Notes: generated from the letters alone by a model not told the origin. A stretch of 64,000 nucleotides of DNA from an uncultured Candidatus Saccharibacteria bacterium (GCA_964483335.1 CAZAAA010000002.1:852-64851), one strand, 5' to 3'; shown: positions 10,939 through 49,366, numbered from the stretch's first letter. Translations and numbers: made by a program.

Positions 10939-12537
10939 GTGAATAAAGTTGTTAATTATTTGAATGAGCAAATTGTAGGGAATGTCTATGACAAAGCCTC
11001 AATTTTGGACGCTTACTCTACGGATCGTTCTATCTTAAAAATTACGCCGCGTTTTGTGGCGGTACCGGAAACTACGGCGGATGTACAAGAGTTACTAAAG
11101 TTTAGTTATGAGCTTTCGCGGCGCAATTTTTCCCTGCCAATTACCGTGCGGGGTTCTGGGCTAGATAAAACGGGGGCGGATCTGGGCTCGGGACTGATTA
11201 TTTCTACAGAAAAATTAAATCAAGTGCAGGAAATAGACGAGCGCAGCCGCCTGGTACGGGTACAGGCTGGTACGACGCTAGGAGATTTAAATCAAGTTCT
11301 GGCAATTTATGGTCTGATGGTGCCGGTACAGCTAGACCCACGGGAGACAATTGGCGGGCTAATTGCCAATTTCCCAACTGACCCAGTAGCAAAGAAATAT
11401 GGTAGCATTTTCTACTTCGTAGATAGAGTGGAAGTGGCGCTGGCGAATGGTGATTTAATTCAGACCACTAGTTATACTGCGCGTGGATTGGCGCGCATGA
11501 AGAAACAAACAAATTTTGAGGGTAAGATTTACCGTGATTTGGAGAAATTACTGAACGAGAAATTTGATTTGATTGATGATTTGTCCGAGGACGACCCTAA
11601 ATCTACGGGCTATCAAATGGTGGCGCGCGTACAAGGAAAGGCACACAAAACTTTTGATCTTTTGCCAGTATTCTTTGCTTCGCAGGGGACACTCGGGGTG
11701 ATTACAGAGGTGATTTTGCGCTGTGAGCCGATTCCGCGTCCATCTGCGCACGTATTAGCTAGCTTCATGAAGATAGATAAGGCGCTGGAGTTTTTGAAGA
11801 AAGTGGAAGATTTAGATCCAGTGCATATGGATATTTACGATGTGCGGATTTTCCGGGCGGCGGCAGAACACGGGAAAAACCTTTCTATTATTTCTAAACG
11901 CATGAAAAGTGGCTACTATGTGCTGATTTCATTTGACGATTTTTCGCTAGCCACTAGAGCAAAGCTGAAAAAATGTATGGAGGCGGCAAAACCGTTGGCG
12001 GCATCAGTTTTGGTAGAAAATGAAGAAAACTCGGCAGATTTTATAGAGTTAGACAGCGTAGTAAATGCTTATCTGAATGATGGCGTGGACGGGGAGAGGG
12101 TGGCACTGATGGACAATGTACGGGTGCCGGCAGAGAATTTGCCAGATTTCCTAAGTGATTTGAAAAAACTAGAAAAGAAGTTTGAACGGGATTTGCCTAT
12201 TTATGGCTCATACGGAACGTCTTCTTACTCAGTGCGGCCAAAATTCCAGTTAGACACTTTAGAAGACCGACAAAAAGTGATGAATTTTCTAAAAACTTAC
12301 TCTGATTTAGTAGTAAAACACGACGGAGAAGTGGCCGGAAGCGGCTCAGAAGGACGAACCAAGGCGATTGTAACTACACCAAAGCTCCGGCGCGAGGAAA
12401 AGGCATTGTATGAAGCTGTAAAAAAGATTTTTGACCCGCAAAATATCTTGAACCCGGAAGTAAAACTAGGGATAGATTTGAAAAACACGGTGCGACACCT
12501 GAGGACGTCGAATAACCCAGGGGTAGTGACGGAATAA
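10939..12537 (+). CDS. FAD-binding oxidoreductase (GlcD/D-lactate dehydrogenase-like)
   Basis: ITVRGSGLD, TIGGLIAN, SQGTLGVITEV, FDPQNILNP motifs; probable GTG start 8 nt after TGCTAAAAT. Confidence 0.85.
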   Translation: MNKVVNYLNEQIVGNVYDKASILDAYSTDRSILKITPRFVAVPETTADVQELLKFSYELSRRNFSLPITVRGSGLDKTGADLGSGLIISTEKLNQVQEIDERSRLVRVQAGTTLGDLNQVLAIYGLMVPVQLDPRETIGGLIANFPTDPVAKKYGSIFYFVDRVEVALANGDLIQTTSYTARGLARMKKQTNFEGKIYRDLEKLLNEKFDLIDDLSEDDPKSTGYQMVARVQGKAHKTFDLLPVFFASQGTLGVITEVILRCEPIPRPSAHVLASFMKIDKALEFLKKVEDLDPVHMDIYDVRIFRAAAEHGKNLSIISKRMKSGYYVLISFDDFSLATRAKLKKCMEAAKPLAASVLVENEENSADFIELDSVVNAYLNDGVDGERVALMDNVRVPAENLPDFLSDLKKLEKKFERDLPIYGSYGTSSYSVRPKFQLDTLEDRQKVMNFLKTYSDLVVKHDGEVAGSGSEGRTKAIVTTPKLRREEKALYEAVKKIFDPQNILNPEVKLGIDLKNTVRHLRTSNNPGVVTE

Positions 12538-12562
12538 AAAGCCACCTTCTAAGGTGGTTTTT
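12536..12562. terminator. Bidirectional terminator; original tRNA-Leu terminator displaced by the integrated element
   Basis: AAAAA-GCCACC-TTCTAA-GGTGGT-TTTT immediately left of the att core. Confidence 0.8.
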
Positions 12563-12565
12563 CTT

Positions 12566-12571
12566 TGGTGC
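12566..12571 (+). repeat. Left att core (TGGTGC)
   Basis: Identical to 18754-18759 and in the same reading frame as recombinase codon 533. Confidence 0.75.
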
Positions 12572-12861
12572 ACCTAGTGCAGGCGAATTGGAACCTAATC
12601 TATAAGGAGTTATTACGCTGGCAAAGCCTACTAGAGGAGTCAGCACTTACGAAACACATCCCCTACTCCCGTGGAACCAGTATGTTGTATGCAAGTGGAC
12701 AGGAGCGGATGCGGGAGAAAACCAACACGAGGGACTGTTCACATCACCAAGCGAAGGGGCAGAGACACGAGAAACCGAGAACGGCCAAATCTGATGAAGA
12801 GGACGAACACGAGGACTCGGACAACGCACACGAACTAAGAAGCGAGGAGCGGTCTCCGTGA
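12568..12861 (+). other. Detached alternative 3' end of the recombinase gene (VHLVQANWNLIYKELLRWQSLL...), rejoined only in the excised form
   Basis: Frame open for 97 codons starting exactly at the att core in the recombinase frame; no promoter or RBS of its own. Confidence 0.65.
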
Positions 12862-12892
12862 GGCAGGTGCAAATGCAACTGACGACACACGA
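12725..12892 (+). repeat. Five ACACGA direct repeats bracketed by an 8-bp inverted repeat
   Basis: ACACGA at 12725, 12765, 12807, 12828, 12887; ACTCCCGT (12665-12672) / ACGGGAGT (12893-12900). Confidence 0.7.
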
Positions 12893-13144
12893 ACGGGAGT
12901 TTTTAAGTTGCGGCGGACGCTCGTTTTTGCGAACGGCGACCGCCTTCTACCTCTATAGTAGCACATATTTTGGAGTTGTTTTTTTGTAGGGTTGGACTTT
13001 TCCACAGGGAGTTGCACTCACCTCTGTTAACCTCAAAACTAATCGGGGGTGGGGTTGCTAAGAGGAGGTGTTTTACACACAAGCACCTGTGCCAACACTA
13101 AAAAACAGGTAGCAATAAGGGGTGAGAAGTGATATAATTAAGTA

Positions 13145-13528
13145 ATGAAGAAACGAGGTAAAATCACTCCAAACGGTGTAGTCTTGAAGACTCACGAGAA
13201 CGCTACTGCGGTTTTTCTGACAGAACAGGGTTTTGATGTTGACCTCATCCCTACTAGTAACATTGAAGGAGTGCACACTCCTGATATTAAGATGAACGAG
13301 CTCAAGTGGGAGATGAAGGCACCACTTGGCGAAGGTAATCAGTTGATGGAGAACACCATCCAGAGAGCACTCAAACAATCGCCAAACATCATCATTGACC
13401 TTCGCCATACGAAGAGACATCAGACAAAATGCTTGAGAGAACTGGAAAAACAGTTTGTAAGCAAGAAGAGCCTAAAACGCCTCAAAATCATCACAAAGAG
13501 CGGAAAAACTCTTGATTTTGAGAAGTAG
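13145..13528 (+). CDS. Stand-alone CdiA C-terminal-like (PD-(D/E)xK, tRNase-type) nuclease
   Basis: THE...TPDIKMNELKWEMKAP...IQRALKQSPNIIIDLR pattern; TATAAT 6 nt before ATG. Confidence 0.78.
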   Translation: MKKRGKITPNGVVLKTHENATAVFLTEQGFDVDLIPTSNIEGVHTPDIKMNELKWEMKAPLGEGNQLMENTIQRALKQSPNIIIDLRHTKRHQTKCLRELEKQFVSKKSLKRLKIITKSGKTLDFEK

Positions 13529-13540
13529 TAGGAGTATAAT
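13512..13540 (+). promoter_or_regulatory. Sigma70 promoter overlapping the 3' end of the nuclease gene
   Basis: TTGATT (13512-13517), 17-nt spacer, TATAAT (13535-13540). Confidence 0.8.
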
Positions 13541-13546
13541 CATAAG

Positions 13547-13620
13547 TAATGAGGGCAGGACCTGCAGTGTAATATGCGGGACACCGCCCTCTTTTAGGTT
13601 GGCTTCTAGCCACCTTTTTT
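13547..13620 (+). ncRNA. Putative small structured RNA downstream of the CdiA-C-like nuclease (candidate RNA antitoxin)
   Basis: GAGGGC-A-GG/CC-GCCCTC outer stem, CCTGCA/TGCGGG inner stem, then terminator hairpin 13596-13615 plus T tract. Confidence 0.6.
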
Positions 13621-13660
13621 GATGAAAAAACTACCACTGAACTAATGCTACAATCAGAGT

Positions 13661-14200
13661 ATGAGAGTAACAAAATATACTGATGACACTAAGGTGAAAC
13701 TGCTTACGCATATCAGGGAGGGTAGAACTGTCAAAGATGCTTGCTCACTAGTTGGCATCTCTGATATGACGCTCACTCGCTGGAGAAGACGTTTTTCTGA
13801 TTTTGATGCAGATTACTTAAAAGCAGTTGAGAGCCAGTGGCAGAACCTTGATGCGACCAAAGAAAGTGGTGTAAGGACTTACAGGCGAAACACCACAAAA
13901 CTCCGTCAAAAGGCAGAAAAACAGGCTAAAATCCAGAAAATGGCAGAAAAAGAACAGGAACTAGCAAGGACTGGCAAACCGCTTACTTACGAAGGCTTAC
14001 GCATCCGTTATGGTAGCATCGCTGATGACGAGCCGCTAATGCCCTGCATTAACCCTAGTAATGGTTTTGTGGAGTATCTGAAACGACAAAGTGGCAACTA
14101 TGTCCAGTTCTCTTGTTCACTTGATGCGTTCCGCAAAAGTAATCCTGCGTGGTATCGCAGGCTAGTGGATGAGAACTCTGCTCTTGATGTTGGTGATTAA
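13661..14200 (+). CDS. HTH protein, terminase small subunit/phBC6A51-like N-terminal domain
   Basis: IREGRTVKDACSLVGISDMTLTRWRRRFSDF helix-turn-helix; TACAAT 6 nt before ATG. Confidence 0.65.
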   Translation: MRVTKYTDDTKVKLLTHIREGRTVKDACSLVGISDMTLTRWRRRFSDFDADYLKAVESQWQNLDATKESGVRTYRRNTTKLRQKAEKQAKIQKMAEKEQELARTGKPLTYEGLRIRYGSIADDEPLMPCINPSNGFVEYLKRQSGNYVQFSCSLDAFRKSNPAWYRRLVDENSALDVGD

Positions 14201-14389
14201 GACGTGATTTTACACGCTCCGCCCCTGTTGATGCTTGCCTTGTTGTCTACCTCAAAGGTTGGACTTCTGGAAAAATCAAAATAGACAGATTGGACACAAG
14301 TAGGGTTTTGACCTGAACAACGTTTTTTGCCGACCTCATATAATATACTCACCAAAAAATGCAAGACCCAAAAGGAATATAATGGACTT

Positions 14390-14719
14390 ATGAGTAGAAA
14401 AATCAAACTAACCGAGAAAAGGACGCAGATTATCGTAAGGGCTATACGAGATGGCTACACAATCACTGATGCTTGCGAGATGGCTTGTATCGGACGGAGC
14501 ACCTACTACAAGTGGCTTGAGGAGTTCCCAGACTTCAATAAGGCGATTGTAGAGGCAACAGATTCGCAATGGAAGTATGCGACTTGGCGAGTGCGACACG
14601 GCTACAGGAGTTATGAGCGGCATCATCTGAACCGCCCATCTGTTAACTACCGAAGTCCAAACAATATGCCTTTTGTGATGCCGCCAGTAGAGGGTTTTAG
14701 TCTTGATGAGAATGGCTAA
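14390..14719 (+). CDS. HTH protein, paralogue of 13661-14200
   Basis: IRDGYTITDACEMACIGRSTYYKWLEEFPDF; shares SQW...G.R.Y.R tail; TATAAT 6 nt before ATG at 14390. Confidence 0.65.
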   Translation: MSRKIKLTEKRTQIIVRAIRDGYTITDACEMACIGRSTYYKWLEEFPDFNKAIVEATDSQWKYATWRVRHGYRSYERHHLNRPSVNYRSPNNMPFVMPPVEGFSLDENG

Positions 14720-14734
14720 AATCTGATGGAAGTA

Positions 14735-14763
14735 TTGACAAAATTAAGCATATGTGCTATAAT
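14735..14763 (+). promoter_or_regulatory. Consensus sigma70 promoter with extended -10
   Basis: TTGACA (14735-14740), 17 nt, TATAAT (14758-14763), TG at 14755-14756. Confidence 0.9.
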
Positions 14764-14769
14764 GGAGTT

Positions 14770-15204
14770 ATCGTCAGGAATGATGATATACGATACTCGC
14801 TGAAGTTGAAGTCTCTGAGCCAAGGCGAAGAGATGGGAGCAACCAAGTTAAAAAGTGGTCTGGAAGATGCAAGCGGAAAATCCGCAAATAAGTTCCCAAA
14901 AGCACCTTAAGAATGCATCTCCACGTATCGTTATTAAAAACCAGTTAGAGGGGCGAATTACTAGCCAAAGTTCTTATATCAACATCCAGCAGAGACTGGT
15001 GAGATGGGAAGTGAACCAAGGCGAAAAGACGGTTTGAGAAGTAGTAGCCAGACGAAATATGCTCAGGTGAACCTGTGAAAAGGGAGTGCGAAATAGCACG
15101 CAAATCTTCCCAAAGCACCTTACACCTTCCATCCTGTAGTTCAATCAAATCTCATATAAGCCCCTATTATCGCCCTGCTCAATTACGAGCAGGGCTTTCC
15201 TTTT
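14770..15204 (+). ncRNA. Putative ~435-nt two-domain structured non-coding RNA
   Basis: Consensus promoter, no credible ORF or RBS, GNRA-capped hairpin, two long-range closing helices, internal sequence repeat, terminator at 15172-15204. Confidence 0.65.
15172..15204 (+). terminator. Intrinsic terminator
   Basis: GCCCTGCTC-AATTAC-GAGCAGGGC followed by TTTCCTTTT. Confidence 0.85.
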
Positions 15205-15243
15205 GTTTGGTTCCAAACGATGCTTTGGTATGGTATAATTAAA

Positions 15244-15369
15244 GTGTTCCATCATTCAAATTTGTAGTAAGTTCACCCCTAACGAGGTGGAGCAAAGAAT
15301 TGAACCCAGAGCGGAGCACCCGCTCCAGTTGGCTCAATCGCTTACTGCAGAAAATGAGTGATGGAACAC
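15244..15369 (+). ncRNA. Putative ~125-nt three-way-junction RNA (ncRNA or cis-leader)
   Basis: 15-bp closing stem GTGTTCCATCATTCA/TGAGTGATGGAACAC, 9-bp TGTAGTAAG/CTTACTGCA stem, two internal hairpins; TGGTATAAT at 15231-15239. Confidence 0.6.
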
Positions 15370-15450
15370 CCATAGCGGGTGTTCCGCTTAGTTTAGGGGA
15401 AGCCCGTGCTTATATTAAACATAATGGCGGGCTTCCCGCTGGAGGAAAAT

Positions 15451-16632
15451 ATGGACAACAAATACGAAGCAACGGGTAATACCGGCCAAAGCAATGCTGA
15501 GACTGGTTGGGAAGGTGTAGCGGCATTGGCTGACGATTTCCAAACCAATAGACCAATAGCAGAAGCAGGGGCACAACAACCAGAGACAATCTCACAGCCT
15601 GAAGTAGTTTTATCTGCCAGTAATAATGTTTATCGTGAAATTGCTAAAGACGCTTTGAAAAATTGGAACGGCTTATCAGATGAAGAAGCCTCAGAAAAAG
15701 TAAATGGAGCATCAGTAGAAGAACTTGAAAGCCAAGTCTATGCTGGAGACTCCATTAAAGCCGCTGTGTCTGGAATTGGAAGTGCACTAGAGAGTAGAGG
15801 TATTACTTGGCAAGGTGAAGAAGACTTACTGAGTTCAGTATTAGACGGAGAGAAACAAGATAGTTCCTTTTCTACCCTCTCTGAATGTTTGGAACGAGTT
15901 GACGACAAAGAGGGGTTTGTCATAGATGTATTGTCAGATATTCATAAGAACTGGGCTGAAACAAATCTCAAGAAGTTTGCAGATGAAAAACGTAGGAACA
16001 AACAATACCAGTTTATGCCTCTTGAGTTGATTGGGAATAAAGAGGCTAGGGCAGACTTATTGTTCCTAGAGCCAATCTTAAAGGCTGGAAACTTTGGAGA
16101 TGAGCACTTTGGTGAACAACTAGACCAGAAATACACTGAACGGCAAAATGAGTTTCTGGAGAAAAATAACTTGCATAGTTTTGGAGACGTAGCATCAGCA
16201 CTTCAAGACCCTGAAAACTGGAATAATGGAAACAATGATGTAATTCCAGAATGGTGGAGCAAACTCCCAGACACCGCTGTTAAAATTGGCGGATGGATTG
16301 GAGATACACCTGCAGGTATTGAAGAAGGCTTAAGATTAGGAAAGAAAGCAAGTGCCGTTAGAATTGCCGCTCAGGTTGAACAGAGAGTTCCTGCTTTGGC
16401 TGATAACGCTCCCGTCAATGGCGAAAACTACCCGTGGCATTATGATGGTGGAGACCGTGATACTTGGCAAACTGGCACAATGCCAGAATGGGTGCTGGGC
16501 AAAATCCATAGAACTTGCGAAGCATACGAACAAAACGGCAAAGTTTTGACTAAGACCGAACTCAGGAAATCAGTTCTAGAGGAGTTTAACTATAGTAGCG
16601 GCTCAGCAATTTGCACCAATGCGATTGTCTAA
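15451..16632 (+). CDS. Acidic hypothetical cargo protein (393 aa), possible RyR-like helical domain
   Basis: Long ORF, GGAGGA RBS before ATG 15451; LSDIHKNW...FMPLELIGNKEARAD segment; terminator hairpin at ~16645-16684. Confidence 0.75.
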   Translation: MDNKYEATGNTGQSNAETGWEGVAALADDFQTNRPIAEAGAQQPETISQPEVVLSASNNVYREIAKDALKNWNGLSDEEASEKVNGASVEELESQVYAGDSIKAAVSGIGSALESRGITWQGEEDLLSSVLDGEKQDSSFSTLSECLERVDDKEGFVIDVLSDIHKNWAETNLKKFADEKRRNKQYQFMPLELIGNKEARADLLFLEPILKAGNFGDEHFGEQLDQKYTERQNEFLEKNNLHSFGDVASALQDPENWNNGNNDVIPEWWSKLPDTAVKIGGWIGDTPAGIEEGLRLGKKASAVRIAAQVEQRVPALADNAPVNGENYPWHYDGGDRDTWQTGTMPEWVLGKIHRTCEAYEQNGKVLTKTELRKSVLEEFNYSSGSAICTNAIV

Positions 16633-16916
16633 TGCGAGTCGTAAGCCCCTTGTAGAGCCTCTCAGAGGCTCACAGGGGCTATTTTAGTGCTACGGGAGTG
16701 CACTTTTACAAGTAGATTGGTGAAGGTCTTGACGTTGGTTCCAAATGGGCTATAATGTAGGTATAGACACCTTATGAGAAAATAGCCTTTTACCGCATCG
16801 GAAAGGATGTAAGCGGTAAAAAAACAAACTCTTGTCCCACTTAGGCAACTGGGAATGACACCTCGTTTTATCTAAGCACTGACGAAGTTGTTAGTGCAGA
16901 AAAATGGCAGGTCTCT

Positions 16917-17156
16917 ATGGCTTCTGTAGCCGATTTGCCCAGTAAACTCACTGCGGCAGAAAGAACCAAGTCGCAAGCCGTCAACTTTATGAGCGTCAAA
17001 GAACTGAGAAAAGTTCTTGGCAAAAATGCTGACGGTATTGACGACCGACACCTCTTAGAAGTTAGTGTTGCCATCGGTAAAATCTCGCTGATGATGACGA
17101 CTAACCCAGAACTGATTGAGAAAATCACCAAATCTTATAACGCCAAGAAAGGTTAA
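16917..17156 (+). CDS. Small protein upstream of the recombinase, putative recombination directionality factor
   Basis: MSVKELRKVLG helix motif; stop 3 nt before the recombinase start; function inferred from position. Confidence 0.5.
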   Translation: MASVADLPSKLTAAERTKSQAVNFMSVKELRKVLGKNADGIDDRHLLEVSVAIGKISLMMTTNPELIEKITKSYNAKKG

Positions 17157-17159
17157 ATT

Positions 17160-18920
17160 ATGGCAAATATGAAAACTCCCGAGCAGGGAGACAAGAAAAA
17201 AGCGGTTGGCTATACCCGTGTGTCAACTGAAGAACAAGTAGACGGGGCTTCTAAAGAAGTGCAGAAACAGGCAATTCTGGAGTATGCGAAGAAATACAAC
17301 CTAGAAATCTCAGAACAAGACATCTACTGGGATGGCGGGTTTTCCGCCAAAAACGCAAACCGACCAGAACTCCAGCGGATGCTGAGTGAAATTGAAGACG
17401 GCACCATCAAGCCAGATGTGCTGATTGTTTACAATCTATCACGCATCTCACGCAACCTAATGTCGTTCTCAGGAGATATTGCTCCAACTCTAGCAAAACA
17501 TAAGGTGGAACTCCGTTCTACCTGTGAGGACATCAACGAAACCCCTCAGGGCAAGTTTATGATGAACCTCTCTATTGCTCTTCATCAATTGGACAACGAC
17601 ACGAAGAGTAAGACTACTTCTGATAATATGAAAATGGTCGCATCTGAAGGCTACTGGCAAAGTTACCCGCCACTGGGAATGGTTAACGACCACGTGCAGA
17701 CGGGCTTAAAAACCAAAGACGGTAAGCCACGCTACCGCACTATCTTGAAGCCAGATTTGCGGAACGACACTGCTCAAAAGGTTAAAGACGTGCTAGACTA
17801 CTACGCACAGGGTGATAAAACTAAGGCTCAGACGCTAAGGTATGCAGGCAAAATCGGGCTCAAGACTAGAGCAGGTAAAGCCCTGACTCTCCAGTCTCTG
17901 ATTGAACTACTCCAGCAACCCGCTCTGGCTGGCTACATCTGTTCACCAACTTTGACTGATGGACAGTATATCAAAGCCCAGTGGGACGGTCTTATCTCAC
18001 TGGAGCAGCATCTGCTGATTTTGGAGTTGCTCCGTGGTGGGAGCGACCCAGATAAAAAGCAGATTTACCGCAGAAATAATCCAGACTTCCCTCTTAAGGG
18101 GACGCTCATCTGTGGATGTTGTGGCTATGCGGCACGTGGCTCTTGTCCACGATGTGGAAGCGGTGCCAAAAGTCCACGCTATCACTGTTCTGAGTGTGTT
18201 GGTGCTGGCTCTATCAAGCCAGAAAAGATGCACGAGAAGTTCATTGACCTTCTTGCTCGCATTACGCCTGTCAAAAGCCTTCTGAGAGCCTTTGGGCTCT
18301 CTATGGGGCGAGCGATGAAACACAGCGTAGAAAAGGCTCAGAAAACGATTGCGGAACAAGAAGCGTTGATTAAAACATATGCAGAGCAAGAAGAGGAGTC
18401 GTTCTTCTTAGCCAGCACGCATCAACGCTCGGAAGCCGACCATAATCGTCTTGTTGCTATCTTGCAAAAGAAAACCAAGCAGGCTGAACAAGCGATTGAA
18501 GAGGCTAAAGAACTTAAAAGCATCAGCGAGCACAAGATTAAGTGCCTTGTAGATTTGATGGAGAACCCCGCCGACTTATGGCGGGGGGCTTCCCTTGAAG
18601 TGCGACAGATGCTCCAGAAGATGATTTTTCCGAACGGACTAAGTGTCAATTTGAAGACTGGAGAGTTTGCAGAAATTGGAACCAACGACATCAGCCCGCT
18701 CTTCTCTGTTATTTGCACCAAAAATGGCTCAAAAGAGCCAGATTATTCAGATGTGGTGCCCGGGACTGGACTCGAACCAGCAAGCCGTGAGGCATATGCT
18801 CCTAAGGCATACGTGTCTACCAATTTCACCACCCGGGCAAGGGTTGGTGGTTACGAGCTTTATTATAGCAGATTTTACTGTGGCTGGCTAGAGTTTTGTG
18901 GCGGCACTGGGGCTGGCTGA
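17160..18920 (+). CDS. Large serine recombinase (resolvase, recombinase and Zn-ribbon domains); integrated-state C-terminus reads antisense through tRNA-Leu
   Basis: GYTRVSTEEQ catalytic Ser motif, YNLSRISRN, PLKGTLICGCCG...YHCSEC zinc ribbon, coiled coil. Confidence 0.93.
   Translation: MANMKTPEQGDKKKAVGYTRVSTEEQVDGASKEVQKQAILEYAKKYNLEISEQDIYWDGGFSAKNANRPELQRMLSEIEDGTIKPDVLIVYNLSRISRNLMSFSGDIAPTLAKHKVELRSTCEDINETPQGKFMMNLSIALHQLDNDTKSKTTSDNMKMVASEGYWQSYPPLGMVNDHVQTGLKTKDGKPRYRTILKPDLRNDTAQKVKDVLDYYAQGDKTKAQTLRYAGKIGLKTRAGKALTLQSLIELLQQPALAGYICSPTLTDGQYIKAQWDGLISLEQHLLILELLRGGSDPDKKQIYRRNNPDFPLKGTLICGCCGYAARGSCPRCGSGAKSPRYHCSECVGAGSIKPEKMHEKFIDLLARITPVKSLLRAFGLSMGRAMKHSVEKAQKTIAEQEALIKTYAEQEEESFFLASTHQRSEADHNRLVAILQKKTKQAEQAIEEAKELKSISEHKIKCLVDLMENPADLWRGASLEVRQMLQKMIFPNGLSVNLKTGEFAEIGTNDISPLFSVICTKNGSKEPDYSDVVPGTGLEPASREAYAPKAYVSTNFTTRARVGGYELYYSRFYCGWLEFCGGTGAG
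18754..18838 (-). tRNA. trnL: tRNA-Leu(TAG), integration target
   Basis: GCCCGGG/CCCGGGC acceptor stem, TATGC-CTTAGGA-GCATA anticodon arm, long variable arm, CCA; TGCTATAAT promoter upstream. Confidence 0.96.
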
Positions 18921-48919: not shown

Positions 48920-49366
48920 TTATCTTATTTCAATAATAGTACCGTCTTTTCTTATTAAAATCAAATGGCGGATAGTACCGGCGCGTTGCGTGGCCAATTG
49001 CGCAAGTCGTGCCTGAATTTCTTCCACTGAGATAGCAATTTTTCTGGCATCAAAAATAATGCTCCCGGAATACGGGAGCGCACGTTTAATTTGACGTTCG
49101 ATAGAGCGGAAACTTCTACCAATGGGGCTTTTAATCTTCCAAAGCGTATCAAATAATACGATATCGGGAGTGTGGATACGGGGATGCGGAGAAATAAACG
49201 TGATGCTAGTATTATAGTGCGTGGCAATAATACTAGCAGCAGATAATTTCTCTGGGGTCAAAAAAAGCGGATTACAGCCGCTAAGATGGAGACAATAGTC
49301 ATCCTTGCAATATTTTATATTCATTTTATTATAATAATCAATTTTATTGTAGGGTGTAGTAGTCAT
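48920..49366 (-). CDS. Second stand-alone CdiA-C-like nuclease homologue, probably catalytically degenerate
   Basis: HTPDIVLFDTLWKIKSPIG...IKRAL..SGSIIFDAR; expected catalytic Glu positions appear as Lys; AAGGAG RBS. Confidence 0.68.
   Translation of the reverse strand: MTTTPYNKIDYYNKMNIKYCKDDYCLHLSGCNPLFLTPEKLSAASIIATHYNTSITFISPHPRIHTPDIVLFDTLWKIKSPIGRSFRSIERQIKRALPYSGSIIFDARKIAISVEEIQARLAQLATQRAGTIRHLILIRKDGTIIEIR

Follow-up and report, generated by a model that had tools for sequence, protein, structure and literature searches.

What does a recombinase gene encode when the site at which its product acts lies within the gene itself? This question is raised by a 64,000-nucleotide stretch of DNA (hereafter the window, with positions counted from its first letter) from an uncultured Candidatus Saccharibacteria bacterium (GCA_964483335.1 CAZAAA010000002.1:852-64851), whose genome is assembled in 26 contigs. 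The window contains an integrative element of 6.2 kb (12566-18759) at the CCA end of a tRNA-Leu(tag) gene, and the element ends in a serine recombinase gene that reads into the tRNA. A preliminary description of the locus had proposed that the crossover core lies inside the recombinase open reading frame (ORF), with C-termini that depend on the state of the DNA. We find that the core is indeed inside the ORF, and that the integrated and free DNA states encode different C-termini. Taken as a whole, the data are best explained by an attachment site of the free element (attP) located inside the 3' end of its own recombinase gene, such that integration swaps the C-terminus of the enzyme; we put the probability of this explanation at roughly 80%. 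The coordinates of all features are collected in Table 1.

The element is bounded by two copies of the hexamer TGGTGC, at the positions given in the preliminary description (12566-12571 and 18754-18759). The hexamer is the reverse complement of GCACCA (first acceptor-stem base, discriminator base and CCA of the tRNA). The tRNA was located with ARAGORN and Rfam, and is the sole Rfam match between 12400 and 19000. Since TGGTGC occurs 38 times in the window (~23 expected), the hexamer alone carries no statistical weight, and the weight rests on comparison with relatives. A related element, L002, has a 94% identical recombinase and shares both the occupied tRNA-Leu(tag) and the host synteny (rpsL-tig-oxidase ... 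rsmD-recG) with the element of the window. DNA homology between the window and L002 starts exactly at 12566 and stops at 18838, at the tRNA. When an empty site was sought in relatives via the flanking FAD-linked oxidase gene, synteny differed, and the only unoccupied tRNA-Leu(tag), which ends in CCA, was that of a congener at species-level distance (G022). These comparisons support the borders proposed earlier. The predicted circle junction carries CAGATGTGGTGCACCTAGTG and the predicted empty site TTCTTTGGTGCCCGGGAC; in the rejoined empty site the expected terminator is present as a minus-strand hairpin with a T-run close to the tRNA CCA.

The recombinase ORF (17160-18920, plus strand) encodes 586 aa in the integrated form and runs antisense through the whole tRNA-Leu gene into its promoter region. 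Domain content and predicted fold identify the product as a large serine recombinase. The Resolvase domain PF00239 was detected at residues 15-165 (E 8.5e-27) and PF07508 (Recombinase) scored above its cut-off, with PF13408 at 18.6 bits, below its cut-off of 25.3. In an alignment of 22 homologues, residues Y18, R20, V21, S22 and T23 are invariant and the zinc-ribbon cysteines C318, C321, C343 and C346 are conserved. The AlphaFold2 model, built for the homologue P0025 (see below), contains a long helical hairpin at residues 392-488. The best structural matches in the PDB come from the integrases of SPbeta, Bxb1 and phiC31 (E 1e-19 to 1e-14), for which complex structures were released in 2026.

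The core had been assigned to recombinase codon 533, and it spans codons 532-534. The reading frame is GTG GTG CCC at the right copy and TTG GTG CAC at the left copy; the T of the core occupies codon position 2 at both, and the join is therefore in frame. The continuation from the left core announced in the preliminary description was recovered as 96 residues and a stop codon (12859-12861), giving a joined ORF of 533 + 96 = 629 aa, the length predicted for the circle. The integrated form is 586 aa long, as described. Its end had been taken as 54 residues read antisense through the tRNA, and here the description has to be amended: 53 residues are replaced, and only ~28 of them are tRNA antisense.

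A database search yielded ~70 close family members, those named all being from Saccharibacteria; 22 homologues were aligned, 91 were classified, and 47 Saccharibacteria genomic loci were compared. V533 is invariant in the alignment, and the sequence that follows it, GxxG(L/I/V/F)EP..., is the antisense of the tRNA acceptor stem and T-arm. In 41 of the 47 loci a minus-strand tRNA abuts the recombinase ORF with its CCA end at the conserved valine codon (Glu 22, Arg 9, Leu 6, Lys 3, Met 1). The integrated-form tails of these relatives vary from 6 to 60 or more residues and follow the targeted tRNA, with GLEP, GIEP, GVEP or GFEP representing the T-arm antisense. A displaced tail segment was found in 36 loci, on the same strand and 3-11 kb upstream of the recombinase, always opening with an in-frame xTG-GTN. 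Its motif is (L/M/V)V-x-LV-x-SNWN-...-YPTNYIP, ending as ...LLRW...KHIPY in the clade of the window. The elements measure 3.1-11.2 kb, and in the 32 for which both ends are available, attL and attR are identical over only 6-12 bp, starting with TGGT, with no long direct repeats. A small subclade with GWD..GIEP tails has the TGG in another codon phase, and the arrangement therefore persists with variation.

One protein in the alignment of 22, P0025 (589 aa), is an exception to the antisense pattern. It continues with MVHLVQSNWNIIYNELLRWETLLEKSSLIKHIPY, which matches the continuation VHLVQANWNLIYKELLRWQSLLEESALTKHIPY displaced in the window. P0025 is encoded in L052 (202-12836), where two 100%-identical copies of an element stand in tandem with a period of 6313 bp at a tRNA-Arg(ccg) gene. 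The upstream recombinase reads across the P-P' junction and is the full-length P0025, and the downstream copy ends in the tRNA-Arg. L052 is either a true tandem or the path of an assembler through reads of a circle and of an integrated copy; either way, the attP junction existed in the sample. A tail of the NWN...EL type also occurs in P0030, P0046, P0072 and the recombinase of L030, and homologous recombinases thus share a tail resembling the VHLVQANWN...LLRW sequence previously read from the window. The frame of the core, the displaced tails of relatives and the joined form in L052 agree in pointing to C-termini that depend on the DNA state.

Multiple insertions are recorded elsewhere as well. 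L014 has a 65-nt P-arm remnant at attL, two tails are present in each of L029, L032 and L023, and L030 also has a remnant or a second tail, which suggests frequent repeated, tandem or serial integrations. The attL of L052 carries a duplicated TGGTACACC.

The displaced tail has the signature of a coding sequence. In most elements its ORF is 28-46 codons long. For three clades, divergence per site (codon positions 1/2/3) amounts to 0.28/0.16/0.34, 0.25/0.16/0.38 and 0.10/0.05/0.24, and right after the tail stop it becomes flat and saturated (0.57-0.72), without periodicity. We calculated Nei-Gojobori ratios of non-synonymous to synonymous differences per site (pN/pS) on tail codons 11-38, leaving out the first ten codons because they overlap with the attachment site. 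The ratio is 0.41, 0.42 and 0.18 in the recombinase frame of the three clades, compared with 0.86-4.5 in the two shifted frames; in the clade of the window, the value of 0.41 stands against 0.86 and 1.87. Judged by these substitution patterns, the tail is under purifying selection at the protein level. The full-length protein is therefore the selected product, and the ORF of the prophage is a truncation fused to arbitrary sequence. The extension that follows the conserved tail in the subclade of the window (~52 codons) has a pN/pS of 0.2-0.6 and whole-codon insertions and deletions, with the frame and the ...SP* stop kept across diverged lineages; by the same measure, it is under weaker constraint than the conserved tail.

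The conserved part of the tail comprises ~35 residues with invariant W, N, R, I, P and T, and is partly helical by prediction. Conservation is lowest at the extreme C-termini, which lack an AA-type ending. In the AlphaFold2 model of the natural full-length protein P0025 (66 sequences), the body is predicted with a local distance difference test score (pLDDT) above 90 up to approximately residue 530, followed by a disordered linker and a low-confidence C-terminal helix over NWNIIYNELLRWETLLE.

Part of the tail segment also appears to be recognised as DNA. The motif of the P' arm resembles the antisense of the tRNA T-loop, TCGAACC, its GGAAC being placed 5 bp farther outward than the CGAAC of the tRNA arm, and the identity between P' and B' peaks at offsets -1 and +4/+5. 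In the LI integrase, the motif bound by the zinc-ribbon domain is shifted 5 bp outward in attP relative to attB (PMC3783163). Applying this rule here, we take the P' arm motif to be probably the DNA recognition motif of the recombinase. A second RGAAC motif lies ~84 bp downstream of the TGGAAC of the P' arm (12673-12678 in the window, GGA ACC; codons 37-38 of other tails) and persists beyond the tail stop in clade C. It may be an accessory binding site or reflect another constraint at the DNA level.

Integration at a CCA end affects the termination of the tRNA transcript. The hairpin and T-run at 12542-12557, which score as a minus-strand terminator, are probably the native terminator of the tRNA-Leu gene, now 6.2 kb away from it. 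The B arms of other elements often carry a hairpin with a T-run too. As integration carries the tRNA's own terminator off to attL, the element seems to provide a substitute, encoded antisense to the linker codons (NKKE...S.S). On the tRNA strand, 11-14 nt past the CCA, each of the 26 distinct P arms contains a hairpin of 5-9 bp that precedes a T5-6 run by at most 1 nt; its position is shared by the window and L002-L042. The mean minimum free energy of these hairpins is -7.6 kcal/mol, compared with -3.3 kcal/mol for shuffled sequences, and 13 different stem sequences are represented. RNAalifold gave no consensus for the P-arm hairpins because the stems lie in different registers, and per-sequence folding against shuffles was used instead. 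The P-arm hairpin would thus serve as a replacement intrinsic terminator for the target tRNA. The position of a terminator within linker codons fits the AlphaFold2 picture of a disordered linker after approximately residue 530.

The split of the gene has left its mark on protein databases. Gene callers report the displaced tails as orphan proteins of 40-160 aa, and public protein sets hold dozens of such 'proteins' of 37-161 aa (P0094-P0133), which are displaced tails read from host DNA at attL. A word-based search with the tail region matched only P0025 itself, and an exhaustive profile search with the tail retrieved 40 proteins, nearly all of them orphan small ORFs at attL, with no full-length representative. 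Catalogued recombinases with false tRNA-antisense C-termini and orphan tails are a systematic annotation artefact. Since gene callers give these false C-termini, pipelines and integrase mining that trust the prophage ORF would synthesise the wrong protein.

Several observations weigh against the proposed swap or limit it. The joined form and the unoccupied tRNA come from relatives, and not from the genome of the window or a conspecific. L052 could be an assembler traversal, and its element is only 40% identical to that of the window. An exact-pattern scan of metagenome and viral contigs with a conserved stretch of the tail returned two integrated L003-like copies and no circle. In the AlphaFold2 model the tail has a pLDDT of 38-57 and is not docked, giving no structural hint of its contacts, which we attribute to the small number of alignment rows that carry a native tail. 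Conservation of SNWN is partly a matter of DNA, as an attachment-site motif (TCG AAT TGG AAC is near-invariant at wobble positions), and similarity in clade C runs a few codons past the stop, indicating some nucleotide-level constraint downstream. Finally, P0030 and P0046 keep an intact tail in chromosomal-looking contexts without a tRNA, and the tail is therefore not intrinsically bound to the split arrangement.

P0030 is encoded in L053 (10001-15678), where the gene with its uninterrupted NWN-type tail, without a tRNA, adjoins an Mrr-like nuclease gene and two further large serine recombinase genes on the opposite strand. This layout may be ancestral, or it may represent a nested element still in the attP configuration.

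We propose the following mechanism. The attP site would consist of a P arm formed by the last ~45 nt before codon 533, the core in codons 532-534, and a P' arm formed by the first ~30 nt of the tail segment. The gene would be whole in the circle and where two tandem copies adjoin, and would there encode the core of the enzyme, a flexible linker, a tail of ~40 residues that is predicted to be largely helical, and the charged extension (629 aa). Recombination with the tRNA end would regenerate the tRNA exactly. It would carry the tail segment 6.2 kb away to attL, where expression signals are lacking, and fuse the recombinase core to 53 arbitrary residues (586 aa). On the opposite strand of the P-arm codons, the hairpin with its T-run would take over as the terminator of the tRNA.

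The tail is selected, yet it can be made only from the attP form; it would therefore serve a task in the free state, although its selection does not indicate which. Integrated copies have kept an intact, conserved core, and family members occur in many hosts and at five tRNA identities, which makes it probable that the form lacking the tail retains excision activity. We tentatively prefer a model in which the tail biases the enzyme toward integration or blocks excision. The tail-less prophage form, together with an accessory factor, would then be able to excise, and the product of the 79-aa ORF upstream of the recombinase is a candidate for this factor.

We also considered a self-toggling integrase, in which the isoform encoded by either DNA state would catalyse the exit from that state, and regard it as rather unlikely. 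The full-length enzyme of the circle would integrate, and the tail-less enzyme of the prophage, freed from a block imposed by the tail, would excise. Directionality would then be written into the position of the attachment site inside the gene, instead of depending wholly on a distinct directionality factor. Recognition by the enzyme would rest on universal tRNA features (the CCA end and the T-loop), by which close relatives could switch between Leu, Arg, Glu, Lys and Met tRNAs as targets.

Alternatively, the tail may be necessary for activity, such that its loss at integration inactivates the enzyme and the element can be re-mobilised only by full-length enzyme acting in trans, which an incoming circle or the upstream copy of a tandem array would supply. 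The purifying selection on the tail is compatible with such a one-way reaction, as is the arbitrary sequence and length of the substitute tails. The common tandem arrays and decayed remnants (L052, L014, L029, L032 and L023) are the residue expected from repeated integration without excision. However, nearly all integrated copies have an intact and strongly conserved recombinase core, which is unexpected for enzymes that are dead on arrival. The elements of the window and L002 have diverged by ~17% in DNA, but by only 6% in the recombinase protein. The occurrence in many species and at five tRNA identities also calls for repeated exit from the chromosome. We consider a permanent loss of activity improbable.

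It is distinctly unlikely that the native tail, or its absence, acts by setting the half-life of the recombinase, in which case the amount of enzyme, and not its chemistry, would differ between the two states. There is a precedent for a C-terminal end that is removed by integration at an attP inside a gene (PMC9934374, PMC6109161). Tethering of the tail by a disordered linker in the AlphaFold2 model, and the long, charged and disordered extension added in the subclade of the window, would be in keeping with a role in turnover. The conserved part, however, is not a short terminal tag but a partly helical segment by prediction, and poor conservation at the extreme C-termini, with no AA-type ending, is not what a degradation signal would lead one to expect.

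Large serine recombinases often have dispensable C-terminal ends, and the residues after V533 could be dispensable in both states, with conservation of the tail caused by constraint on the DNA (an arm of the attachment site, or regulatory DNA downstream). The conservation of SNWN at the nucleotide level, including third positions, and the persistence of the second RGAAC motif past the stop in clade C are in line with this. Beyond NWN, however, the per-site frequency of synonymous changes exceeds that of non-synonymous changes by a factor of 2-5, in the recombinase frame only; an open frame of 28-46 codons is kept in 36 elements, with divergence saturating right after the stop; and the same motif is retained in relatives whose gene is uninterrupted. 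A tail without function as protein is thus very unlikely.

A chance extension of the ORF or a misassembly of the metagenome-assembled genome, with a coincidental 6-bp repeat, might be suspected from the frequency of TGGTGC, the T-poor stretch 12700-12860 that favours long chance open frames and the fragmented assembly, but is refuted by recurrence of the architecture in 41 independently assembled loci with different tRNAs, in-frame cores in 36 of 36 tails, coding selection on the tail and the break in L002 homology exactly at the core.

The arrangement shares features with several known systems. In archaeal integrases of the SSV1 type (fusellovirus/pTN3-type), attP lies inside the int gene, integration takes place at a tRNA gene, and a complete protein is encoded by the excised form alone. 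The element in the window likewise has its attachment site within the ORF of its own recombinase, targets a tRNA, and partitions int upon integration. The SSV-type enzymes, however, are tyrosine recombinases, a large part of the gene is removed so that no intact enzyme is left, and the shared core consists of tens of bp of tRNA sequence. In the window, the enzyme has a serine fold, the exchange is limited to the last 40-96 residues and spares the catalytic and DNA-binding body, and the core in the family is 6-12 bp.

In the integration-dependent immunity of mycobacteriophages (BPs, Brujita, Charlie; clusters MabN/MabB), the attP core lies close to the 3' end of the coding sequence for the repressor and the target is a tRNA gene; the prophage protein lacks C-terminal residues of the viral form, and the two proteins differ functionally (PMC9934374, PMC6109161). 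There, the split gene encodes a repressor, the integrase is a tyrosine recombinase, and a short ssrA-like degradation tag is removed. In the window, by contrast, the split gene is that of the serine recombinase itself, a conserved module of ~40 residues is displaced, and no repressor is involved. The element is analogous to these systems and not a member of them.

With the integrases of phiC31, Bxb1, A118/LI, TP901-1 and SPbeta, the enzyme in the window shares domain order, fold and short attachment sites that have few bp in common, and possibly also a distal recognition motif that lies 5 bp further outward in attP than in attB. In these canonical systems, attP is outside the int ORF, the same protein is made in both states, and a separate directionality factor determines the direction. 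They mostly insert within protein-coding genes (PMC6109161), whereas the family described here targets the CCA end of five tRNA identities. As in the Islander-type case, the element in the window inserts at the 3' part of a tRNA gene that is kept functional. Islander-type tRNA islands, which use tyrosine integrases, insert at the 3' part of a tRNA gene and keep it functional via a carried tRNA 3' fragment. The element in the window, in contrast, rebuilds only GCACCA and supplies a new terminator, antisense within int. Full-text literature searches, which covered few subscription journals, returned neither a description of a serine integrase with attP inside its own ORF nor one of this Saccharibacteria element family, and novelty on both counts is provisional.

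One-way DNA insertion relies mainly on large serine integrases as tools, and the control of their directionality is an active structural question. The family provides a natural case in which the C-terminus of such an enzyme depends on the state of the DNA, and raises the question whether a tethered C-terminal module could tune integration versus excision. It also adds a whole family of serine integrases that targets tRNA CCA ends, and a single stretch of ~75 bp that combines a protein linker, a recombination site and, on the opposite strand, a terminator for a host tRNA. Saccharibacteria, for which few mobile elements have been described, carry an abundant family of integrative elements of 3-11 kb.

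Distant large serine recombinases (653-707 aa) are found at the end of elements that resemble actinomycete integrative and conjugative elements (L091, 8001-10124, and L092, 8001-9962) and carry TrwB/FtsK-like, Replic_Relax and methyltransferase genes. Their ORFs terminate within tRNA-Leu(gag) and tRNA-Ser(tga), where the TGG of the CCA end falls on codon position 2, and the layout is therefore apparently not confined to Saccharibacteria. The far ends of both elements gave only 6-mer matches, with one candidate tail ORF that has its own ribosome-binding site. If the enzyme of the window were to toggle itself between the two states, the similar layout of these elements would hint at a widespread principle.

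Table 1. Features of the integrative element and its flanks in the window (positions from the first letter of the 64,000-nucleotide stretch)
Feature	Position	Strand	Remarks
B arm of the original attB	12537-12565	-	hairpin and T-run
Hairpin and T-run, scored minus-strand terminator	12542-12557	-	8 nt from the tRNA CCA in the predicted empty site
attL core TGGTGC	12566-12571	+	L002 homology begins exactly here
Displaced coding segment, conserved native tail HLVQANWNLIYKELLRWQSLLEESALTKHIPYSRGTSMLYAS	12572-12696	+	no own start signal; translated only when joined to codon 533
P' arm motif GCGAATTGGAAC, family consensus TCGAATTGGAAC	12583-12594	+	encodes (S/A)NWN; nearly invariant even at third codon positions
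Low-complexity charged extension GQERMREKTN...SEERSP and stop	12697-12861	+	only in the subclade of the window, L002, L003 and L005
CdiA_C-like nuclease domain protein	13145-13528	+	recurs only in L002
Helix-turn-helix proteins, small-terminase-subunit-like	13661-14200, 14327-14719	+	recur in 8-9 related elements
408-aa protein, no function assigned	15406-16632	+	recurs only in L002
79-aa ORF abutting the recombinase start	16917-17156	+	no family match; position and sequence conserved in at least 10 related elements
Recombinase core, codons 1-533	17160-18758	+	catalytic domain (S22), recombinase domain, zinc ribbon, coiled-coil insertion, flexible linker, conserved V533
Hairpin TGGCTCTTTTGAGCCA (18740-18725) and TTTTT (18724-18720)	18720-18740	-	P arm of attP, recombinase linker codons; 13 nt past the CCA
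attR core TGGTGC	18754-18759	+	spans recombinase codons 532-534
tRNA-Leu(tag), integration target, B' arm	18754-18838	-	ARAGORN and Rfam; intact, CCA encoded
Substitute C-terminus, integrated form	18759-18920	+	53 codons and stop (18918-18920); sequence not conserved

Among the other genes of the element, the 79-aa ORF is a candidate for an accessory factor, either a directionality factor or a regulator; tblastn matches to it lie just upstream of int in L002-L008, L031, L032 and L045. No immunity gene was identified next to the element's copy of the CdiA_C-like nuclease gene. The nuclease protein has a partial match of 31% identity elsewhere in the window (49043-49231, minus strand).

On the left flank, the FAD-linked oxidase gene (11017-12537) is inverted relative to tig when compared with 12 genomes of the same genus and with L002, in which oxidase, tig and rpsL follow each other on one strand. 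A role of the recombinase in this inversion was considered, and neither a core-like sequence nor a matching inverted repeat was found at the left inversion border. The stop codon of the oxidase gene overlaps the T-run of the displaced tRNA terminator.

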